DNA of 64,000 bases, from NCBI RefSeq assembly GCF_053078305.1, contig NZ_CP166879.1. One strand, given 5' to 3'. Position numbers and translations under genes: made by a program. This document shows, in pieces, positions 11,885-12,278 of this stretch. Each line of letters begins with the position of its first letter. The stretch's first letter is position 1. The notes under the pieces were generated by a model. The model did no database searches. It was not told the origin of the DNA and saw nothing but the letters and a program-made list of their open reading frames with translations.

Positions 11885-11916
11885 CTGATTAAACAGGGAA
11901 GTCAAACATTAAAATT

Positions 11917-12016
11917 GCCTGATGCGCTACGCTTATCAGGCCTACATCGTGCATTGAAATTGAATGGATTTGCAATGAACTGTAGGCCGGATAAGGCGTT
12001 TACGCCGCATCCGGCA
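11917..12016. repeat. REP/BIME palindromic elements (two REP units in inverted orientation)
   Basis: GCCTGATGCGCTACGCTTATCAGGCCTACA and TGTAGGCCGGATAAGGCGTTTACGCCGCATCCGGCA; typical enterobacterial REP consensus. Confidence 0.7.
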
Positions 12017-12278
12017 AGAGCAACAAACGCAAGTACAGCAACCTGTCATTAAACAGGGAAGTTTAATCTTTGCCCGTTGCATAACCTTTAATTATTCATA
12101 TGCATTGCTGTTGTTACTCTTTATATAACTAACACCAATAATTAACCTTTCTTTTCTGTTTATATAGAGTGAGTACGGCTATTTATGTTATTTTAACAAC
12201 TATTACTACCAAGCCCATTTATCTGGCTTATAAATTAAAATTAATTATTTAATTGAGAAATGGTTAGGGAGAACCTAC

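Follow-up and report, generated by a model that had tools for sequence, protein, structure and literature searches.

Just downstream of epmB, the Escherichia coli sequence studied here carries a 145-bp palindromic segment set between two identical copies of a 15-mer, and the locus raises the question of whether this segment arrived as a mobile unit that duplicated its target and, if it did, when this took place and by what kind of process. A sequence-only reading of the locus had proposed such an insertion of a REP doublet, with the direct repeat as a target-site duplication and with strains lacking the doublet as the place to find the empty site. We examined this proposal by dissecting the locus within the whole 64-kb stretch of DNA that was analysed (hereafter the window), by comparing occupied and empty alleles within and beyond E. 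coli, and by comparing the junctions of related units at other loci. The element itself is known: it is a BIME-1 at a known site that is also occupied in K-12, and presence and absence of whole BIME-1 units among E. coli isolates has been known since the 1990s (published in PMC1187871, citing Bachellier 1997). What our analysis adds to the first reading is that the insertion is ancient, that the empty sites of E. coli are probably secondary deletions, and that the footprint is unlike that of the transposase presumed to act on these elements.

A BIME-1 unit between two copies of a 15-mer

The 15-mer ATTAAACAGGGAAGT is present on the plus strand in exact copies at 11888–11902 and 12048–12062 of the window, which together enclose 145 bp (11903–12047). 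When up to two mismatches were allowed, the 15-mer had three matches in the window, compared with a mean of 0.15 in 100 dinucleotide-preserving shuffles, none of which reached three; a chance origin of the repeat was ruled out by these shuffles. The perfect direct repeat around a segment with two inverted REPs was therefore correctly described in the sequence-only reading, with one correction: the left copy had been said to overlap the epmB stop codon, and it in fact begins 3 nt downstream of the TAA, with CTG in between. The features of the locus, with the evidence for each, are these:

10856–11884, plus strand: epmB coding sequence (EF-P beta-lysylation protein / lysine 2,3-aminomutase); from the list of open reading frames, with the homologous position annotated in K-12 and other genomes
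11882–11884, plus strand: epmB stop codon TAA; from the list of open reading frames
11888–11902, plus strand: left 15-mer ATTAAACAGGGAAGT, the target sequence that is single in empty sites; from the window sequence, the empty alleles and E. albertii (diverged)
11903–11916, plus strand: left outer motif CAAACATTAAAATT, homologous to ..CAAACGCAAAACT of other family members; from family alignments
11917–11945, plus strand: Z-class REP GCCTGATGCGCTACGCTTATCAGGCCTAC, of the short Z form typical of BIME-1; 29/29 to the REP consensus, with inverted-repeat arms
11946–11981, plus strand: long linker, degenerate relative to the L linker of the family, TGCAATATATTGAATTTGCA; from the family alignment
11982–12015, minus strand: Y-class REP, inverted and tail-to-tail with the Z REP; 33/34 (97%) to the Y consensus
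12016–12047, plus strand: right outer motif AAGAGCAACAAACGCAAGTACAGCAACCTGTC, homologous to ATGAACAAAGCGCACTTTGTCAGCAATCTGA of other family members; from family alignments
12048–12062, plus strand: right 15-mer ATTAAACAGGGAAGT; from the window sequence
12279–13148, plus strand: yjeJ coding sequence, function unknown, with an AT-rich spacer before it; from the list of open reading frames
13188–13333, minus strand: second BIME-1-type unit, in the yjeJ–yjeI spacer; from REP consensus matches and the family alignment

Read from left to right, the window runs ...CAGCAGTAA CTG ATTAAACAGGGAAGT CAAACATTAAAATT GCCTGATGCGCTACGCTTATCAGGCCTAC, followed by the 36-nt linker and then by GTAGGCCGGATAAGGCGTTTACGCCGCATCCGGC AAGAGCAACAAACGCAAGTACAGCAACCTGTC ATTAAACAGGGAAGT TTAATC.... 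The Z subtype label (z1 or z2) follows the definition given in PMC3333891 and is provisional.

The 145 bp constitute one complete, single-copy element of the BIME-1 type (a REPIN, or RIB/RIP unit) that is truncated at its extreme left end, where ~12 nt from the left edge of the family consensus (AAGACTGATGAC) have no counterpart. BIME-1 has been described as a Y and a z1 REP in single copy, joined by a long conserved L linker that often holds an IHF site (PMC3333891), with a total size of ~140 bp (PMC1187871). The epmB–yjeJ unit shares with BIME-1 one REP of each class, Y and Z, inverted to each other and in single copy, the long linker, a size of ~140–145 bp, a position just 3′ of a gene, a fold into one long hairpin, the presence or absence of the whole unit among isolates, and occupancy of the same locus in K-12. 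Besides the missing stretch of its left outer motif, it differs in that its linker has lost an IHF-like site kept by the family consensus and by the neighbouring copy: no match to the IHF consensus WATCAANNNNTTR with at most one mismatch was found anywhere in the epmB–yjeJ unit, whereas candidate sites with one mismatch each are present in the family consensus (ATTCAATATATTG) and in the yjeJ–yjeI unit (ATTCAATCAGTTG).

The linker, which is 34–36 nt long, could be aligned with the linkers of eight other loci (yjeJ–yjeI, fadR–ycgB, panM–livJ, ridA–mgtA, glpD, cueO–gcd, livF and yacH–lpdA) and with those found at 19 sites by a pattern scan of metagenomes. The ends of the unit outside the REPs, 14 nt on the left and 32 nt on the right, were considered as donor-specific flanks brought from the yjeJ–yjeI spacer, an idea that the wider alignment rejected because these ends are outer motifs common across the family, (A/G)AGACTGATGACAAAC-N8 on the left and ATGAACAAAGCGCACTTTGTCAGCAATCTGA on the right, mutually inverted. 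Homology of the epmB–yjeJ unit to other family members ends at the two 15-mers. The view of the REP doublet as a unit of the mobile type is thus borne out by conserved ends that recur at many loci and by homology that stops at the repeats.

As single-stranded DNA, the unit is predicted to fold into one long hairpin in which the Z REP is paired with the Y REP (centroid structure; z = −5.2), and its RNA fold has z = −3.4; in this predicted folding of two inverted REPs into a single hairpin it resembles other REPINs. No other REPs lie within 1 kb of the doublet, and the window as a whole holds just two BIMEs. A promoter and terminator scan found nothing relevant adjoining the unit. Two small open reading frames, 11915–12052 on the plus strand and 11942–12082 on the minus strand, fall inside the palindrome. 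Sub-threshold matches to the Rfam family naRNA4/CssrE (RF02564), with 43.6 and 23.9 bits against a gathering score of 59.5, were found at 11985–12074 (plus) and 11948–12016 (minus), respectively; since this family was built from a REP cluster, the matches reflect REP similarity only.

The perfect 15/15 repeat is peculiar to the lineage of the window. The right copy reads ATTAAACTGGGAAGT in K-12 and ATTAAACTGGGAAAT in B1-like strains, and most other E. coli have one or two mismatches in it; in the majority of strains the repeat can be followed over 16 nt with these 1–2 mismatches, the sixteenth base being a T common to both copies, where the left copy of the window has a C. At most 284 of 5,426 complete E. 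coli genomes match the window's version at an identity of at least 99%.

Occupied and empty alleles and the age of the insertion

In the 5,426 complete E. coli genomes, the 801-bp region around the unit fell into length classes of 801, 792, 789 and 641 bp, and a query dominated by the insert identified 3,252 occupied genomes and ~2,090 without the unit. The latter amount to ~40% of E. coli and comprise B2-type strains, O157, O145 and others, with ATCC 11775, Nissle 1917, O145 and O157:H7 among them. In the empty alleles of M7638 and FDAARGOS_1285, the sequence reads ...CAGCAGTAACTG ATTAAACAGGGAAGT TTAATC..., with one 15-mer, and is exactly 160 bp (145 + 15) shorter than the occupied allele. 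The comparison suggested by the sequence-only reading thus came out as anticipated there: genomes without the REP doublet keep a single 15-mer joined to the right flank, and no genome was seen in which the duplication was present without the REP units. Every empty site has the A-type repeat, identical to the left copy. We also searched for tandem 15-mers, the scar of excision of the unit alone; this search was confounded, as its top matches were two-piece matches to occupied alleles. The 792-bp class, a large group of occupied strains that is B1-like and includes O111, O103 and the genome L003, has lost 5 bp (AAATT) of the left outer motif, just before the Z REP (window 11912–11916).

Beyond E. 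coli, the locus of E. albertii has a single diverged copy of the 15-mer (ATTAGACAGGGACGT followed by TTAATCT) and no BIME. The same site is occupied, with both repeats or their remnants, in Escherichia sp. E1V33, E. whittamii, 'E. coli' E69 and Escherichia sp. MOD1-EC7003, which are all four of the cryptic-clade Escherichia species representatives sampled, as well as in GPEC1352, a divergent genome deposited as E. coli; in MOD1-EC7003 the right copy has been deleted. Divergence of the flanks from those of the window amounts to 0.4–1.1% in occupied E. coli and in the O157-like empty allele, 1.7–2.4% in the other (non-O157-like) empty allele, ~5–6% in E1V33, MOD1-EC7003 and E69, ~11.5% in E. whittamii and GPEC1352, and ~14% in E. 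albertii. The inserts diverge in the same order as the flanks (2.3–2.4, 4.3, 5.2, 7.5, 13 and 15.5%), with insert and flank values of 4.3% and 4.7% in E1V33, 5.2% and 5.1% in MOD1-EC7003, and 15.5% and 11.6% in E. whittamii. That insert divergence tracks flank divergence across these lineages shows that the insertion predates their split and is ancient; it probably took place once E. albertii had branched off, in the lineage shared by E. coli and the cryptic clades. This polarity was read from one outgroup genome, E. albertii, and from one genome per cryptic clade. E. albertii is the sole candidate for a true pre-insertion state, represented by a single genome, and it could itself be a secondary deletion; for E. 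fergusonii and Salmonella, no locus was recovered by a peptide-pattern search of species-representative genomes, and yjeJ may be absent there or too diverged.

One may postulate a recent insertion within E. coli, for example in an ancestor of groups A, B1 and C, with strains lacking the doublet in a never-occupied ancestral state. Such a scenario accounts for empty sites that hold exactly one 15-mer and whose A-type repeat always corresponds to the left copy and never has the derived T. It also fits the order of the flank distances, by which the empty alleles (B2-like, then O157-like) resemble successive sisters of an occupied A/B1 cluster, a pattern that would favour one gain if E. coli were considered alone. 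We nevertheless regard a recent insertion as quite unlikely, because lineages whose flanks have diverged by 5–12% (E1V33, MOD1-EC7003, E69, E. whittamii and GPEC1352) have this same insert, too, at an identical position and between the same repeats, and its divergence scales with that of the flanks; a recent gain would need later export to all of those lineages, which would have left inserts far more alike than the flanks around them.

Since the insert is present and co-diverged in all of the cryptic Escherichia sampled, and the flanks of empty and occupied E. coli alleles are just 0.7–2.4% apart, the empty sites of E. coli are most likely secondary deletions between the repeats rather than pre-insertion sites. 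When we checked whether the occupied state is ancestral to the empty one, the cryptic clades were all occupied, with insert and flanks co-diverged, and no empty site with the right copy's derived T was found in the 5,426 genomes, a result that is uninformative rather than negative. The expectation that REP-less strains would mark the empty site holds, then, as far as the single 15-mer is concerned; as a view of the site before insertion it probably fails for E. coli, whose empty alleles appear to be deletion products of a locus that is occupied in the cryptic lineages.

The loss of the unit together with exactly one repeat copy is the signature of repeat-mediated deletion, not of a transposase that removes the unit alone. 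In the empty E. coli, the unit was most likely lost independently of any transposase, by slipped mispairing or single-strand annealing between the repeats across the hairpin-forming palindrome, following the logic of Tn10 precise excision. Long hairpins stimulate deletion between flanking direct repeats, as in the precise excision of Tn10 and Tn5 and in palindrome-stimulated deletion. The parallel lies in empty alleles that have lost an inverted-repeat element and exactly one flanking repeat, restoring a single-copy target, and in the strong hairpin formed by the segment lost at epmB–yjeJ; the differences are that the repeats measure 15–16 bp here and 9 bp in Tn10 and Tn5, and that the evidence of loss at epmB–yjeJ is phylogenetic. 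Bachellier et al. are said to have reported 'excisions of a whole BIME-1' in 1997, and flanking repeats provide a simple reason for the clean loss of some BIME-1 units.

Junctions across the BIME-1 family and the mode of insertion

To place the epmB–yjeJ repeat among those of other members of the family, we scored the local similarity between the left and right flanks directly outside each unit, using left and right flanks from different loci as the control. At nine loci, own-flank scores of at least 11 were obtained for four, compared with 1 of 72 mismatched pairs. For 21 loci, five reached a score of at least 10, compared with 2 of 420 mismatched pairs (permutation p < 5e-5), and at a threshold of at least 11 there were four own-flank pairs and no mismatched ones. 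The flank repeats are 16–27 nt long, start at the unit ends and consist mostly of the terminator hairpin of the upstream gene.

Several of these loci are also polymorphic, which allowed occupied and empty alleles to be compared directly. At yacH–lpdA, where 494 genomes carry the unit and the rest are 171 bp shorter, a hairpin of ~21 nt (AAGCGGCGTGGTTAGCCGCTT) is found once in the empty allele and on both sides of the unit in the occupied one; at mog–satP, where 467 genomes are occupied and the others, including K-12, are 173 bp shorter, the same is true of a hairpin of ~20 nt (ATCCCCCCGAGCGGGGGGAT). By contrast, at cueO–gcd (2,740 genomes occupied) the five nucleotides TATGG were replaced by the unit with no duplication, and at fadR–ycgB (432 genomes occupied) a right-truncated unit adjoins a remodelled terminator, likewise with no duplication. 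A long target duplication of differing length was thus present in three of five occupied/empty comparisons and absent in two, and the repeats by locus measure 15–16, ~20, ~21 or 20–27 nt, or are missing altogether. The members at ridA–mgtA and downstream of fruA had no clean empty alleles, the flank repeat of the yjeJ–yjeI unit, which overlaps the left-end motif of the family itself, is ambiguous, and no conserved target sequence was evident at the family insertions. The prediction that members without repeats would be fixed proved wrong, cueO–gcd and fadR–ycgB being present or absent without any duplication; the polymorphism of these two loci shows that long duplications are not an obligatory product of insertion and that presence/absence does not always need flanking repeats. 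The duplicated target at epmB–yjeJ is one case of a statistically supported but non-universal feature of the BIME family.

Two further observations were made at these loci. The fadR/ycgB terminator hairpin beside the unit differs by compensatory changes between empty alleles (CCCCTCAAACGAGGGG) and occupied ones (GTCCTCCTCAAACGAGGAGGAC). In the cueO–gcd allele of one metagenome contig (L036), the Y REP and the right outer motif are internally duplicated (TTTTGTAG...GTCAG repeated), a BIME-1 in transition to a tandem array.

The mechanism by which REPs and BIMEs are disseminated has been stated to be unresolved (PMC8266576), and the only enzyme experimentally linked to REPs is TnpA-REP, or RAYT (PMC3333891; PMC8266576). 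The model proposed for this enzyme is the 'peel and paste' transposition of IS200/IS605, with which the epmB–yjeJ unit has two things in common, folding of the element in the single-stranded state and REP hairpins that have a GTAG/CTAC foot. Transposition of this Y1 type inserts beside a short specific sequence and leaves no flanking direct repeats (PMC3333891; PMC2817692), whereas a 15–16-bp target is duplicated at epmB–yjeJ and 20–27 bp or none at other family loci; the duplicated targets at epmB–yjeJ, yacH–lpdA and mog–satP consequently do not fit an IS200/IS605-type footprint. Cleavage at C|T, the preference of TnpA-REP, was considered as the source of a stagger and rejected, given a loose fit at the epmB site and no suitable CT at the yacH site. 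MITEs of the ERIC/IRU and Correia types have filled and empty sites in related genomes and a duplicated target (PMC3184786). The epmB–yjeJ unit resembles them in these respects and in being a small, non-coding, palindromic intergenic unit, but their duplications are short and fixed by the parent transposase, while those of the BIME family are long, variable and sometimes lacking.

One might still propose that the unit is a MITE-like non-autonomous transposon moved by a DDE-type transposase with a fixed staggered cut, the 15-mer being a canonical target-site duplication. The long imperfect palindrome, the outer motifs CTGATGACAAAC ... GTTTGTCAGCAATCTGA, which are mutually inverted and resemble terminal inverted repeats, and the direct repeats of target that abut the unit ends at several loci would all be expected of such an element. 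The proposal is very improbable, however, in light of a repeat length that is not fixed, two insertions that show zero duplication when compared with their empty sites, and units that are truncated at either end at some sites; the sole enzyme linked to REPs is, furthermore, a Y1/HUH protein, whose relatives make no duplications. We know of no cognate transposase with ends that match BIME-1. Just as hard to credit is a repeat with no relation to the insertion at all, whether arisen by chance, through an earlier small tandem duplication, or as sequence carried in with the element. The 5 nt upstream of each copy are partly alike (CAGCA...), hinting at a possibly longer and older duplication, and GAAGT in the left copy weakly resembles the family left-end motif GATGA; yet the upstream similarity is 6/12 and not significant, and the shuffles exclude chance. 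The repeat is locus-specific and equal to the single copy of the empty sites, which identifies it as target and not as cargo, and repeats of different sequence abut the unit ends at several independent loci, so that a prior tandem duplication at each, with a unit later landing precisely between the two copies, would be unparsimonious.

A different alternative draws on the second BIME of the window. The gene yjeJ is bracketed by mirror-image BIMEs of one family in the order Z-Y, yjeJ, Y-Z, and both could stem from one event in which the upstream unit was made as an inverted copy of the yjeJ–yjeI unit by a local template switch, with the 15-mer as the stretch re-copied at the return switch. These two units are the only BIMEs of the window, mirror images 1.3 kb apart and 85–92% identical, outer motifs included; the downstream unit is the older, being present also in E. 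albertii, there with a partly deleted Y REP, and in O157:H7 the insert matches it better than anything else in the genome. Even so, we consider a one-event origin unlikely, because in other genomes the best match lies elsewhere (fadR–ycgB and panM–livJ, 82–87%), with the downstream copy not clearly the closest, and because the outer motifs are family-wide and not particular to the yjeJ pair. The linkers of the two units are identical (36/36) in E. whittamii (L009) and clearly different in every other lineage, and this identity looks like later gene conversion between inverted copies 1.3 kb apart.

The account that we consider probable combines an ancestral copy-in of a BIME-1 that duplicated a 15–16-bp target, vertical inheritance, and secondary repeat-mediated loss in E. 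coli. In the lineage ancestral to both E. coli and the cryptic clades, a copy of the unit would have entered the spacer 3 bp past the epmB stop codon, duplicating a target of 15–16 bp (ATTAAACAGGGAAGT, with or without a final T) and leaving one copy on each side, and would then have been passed on vertically. The earlier claim of a target-site duplication is upheld in that the duplicated target, which is single in E. albertii and the empty sites, is tied to the insert; a fixed-stagger cut is not implied. The variable junctions, with duplications of 15–27 bp or none, 5 nt replaced or added as filler, and truncated units, favour a copy-in coupled to replication or repair over a fixed staggered cut, although we hold this mechanism with low confidence. 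It could proceed by template switching, in which the nascent strand would jump to a BIME template and return upstream of its point of departure, or by fill-in at irregular staggered breaks around hairpins, and it may have been initiated by nicking by the REP-associated Y1 transposase, TnpA-REP.

We suggest tentatively, and as a possibility that is more doubtful than the history of this one locus, that BIME-1 and REPINs spread in general by replication- or repair-coupled copy-in, instead of clean single-strand transposition of the IS200/IS605 type, that this copy-in often re-copies 15–27 bp of the target, in many cases the entire upstream terminator hairpin, and that the resulting repeats later serve as a substrate for precise loss. 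If the copy-in reading is true, the flanking repeats would be a readable footprint of the mechanism of REP dissemination and would help to explain the frequent presence or absence of whole BIME-1 units, though two members without repeats are polymorphic too. The heterogeneity of the junctions, with long duplications at some loci and none at others, constrains the mechanism of REP/BIME spread. The literature examined makes no mention of target duplications flanking REP/BIME units, though BIME papers of the 1990s may have described them before. The junction footprint of BIME-1 is possibly under-described, and it would gain greater weight only if such footprints prove both undescribed and general.

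The yjeJ neighbourhood

The yjeJ–yjeI unit has the yjeJ terminator hairpin on one side and, on the other, an incomplete copy of the 5′ arm of that hairpin (GAGGCTGGATG), and 10 nt of the left copy are deleted in the window strain. Upstream, the sequence after epmB differs between genera: in Citrobacter (L012, L014 and L016–L018) an unrelated spacer has a conventional hairpin terminator, GAGTGTCCG...CGGACACTC, directly after epmB, and no conventional hairpin terminator was found after epmB in E. coli, occupied or empty, when window positions 11885–11916 were compared with Citrobacter. Occupied strains thus have no strong hairpin between epmB and yjeJ other than the BIME.

The peptide-pattern search of species-representative genomes recovered YjeJ relatives from Escherichia and Citrobacter only. 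The E. coli yjeJ locus, with 98–99% protein identity and accompanied by the BIME and the right 15-mer, was also recovered from two contigs labelled as non-Escherichia, NZ_ABFU01000112.1 (Bacillus coahuilensis m4-4) and DAAV01000145.1 ('Bacteroidales bacterium H10' MAG), which are almost certainly E. coli contamination of those assemblies. In several E. coli strains, IS1 has inserted into the AT-rich spacer or into yjeJ at its 5′ end, in sequence homologous to window positions ~12200–12280, and in strain KMi029 (L006) yjeJ is annotated as a truncated pseudogene beside IS1A.
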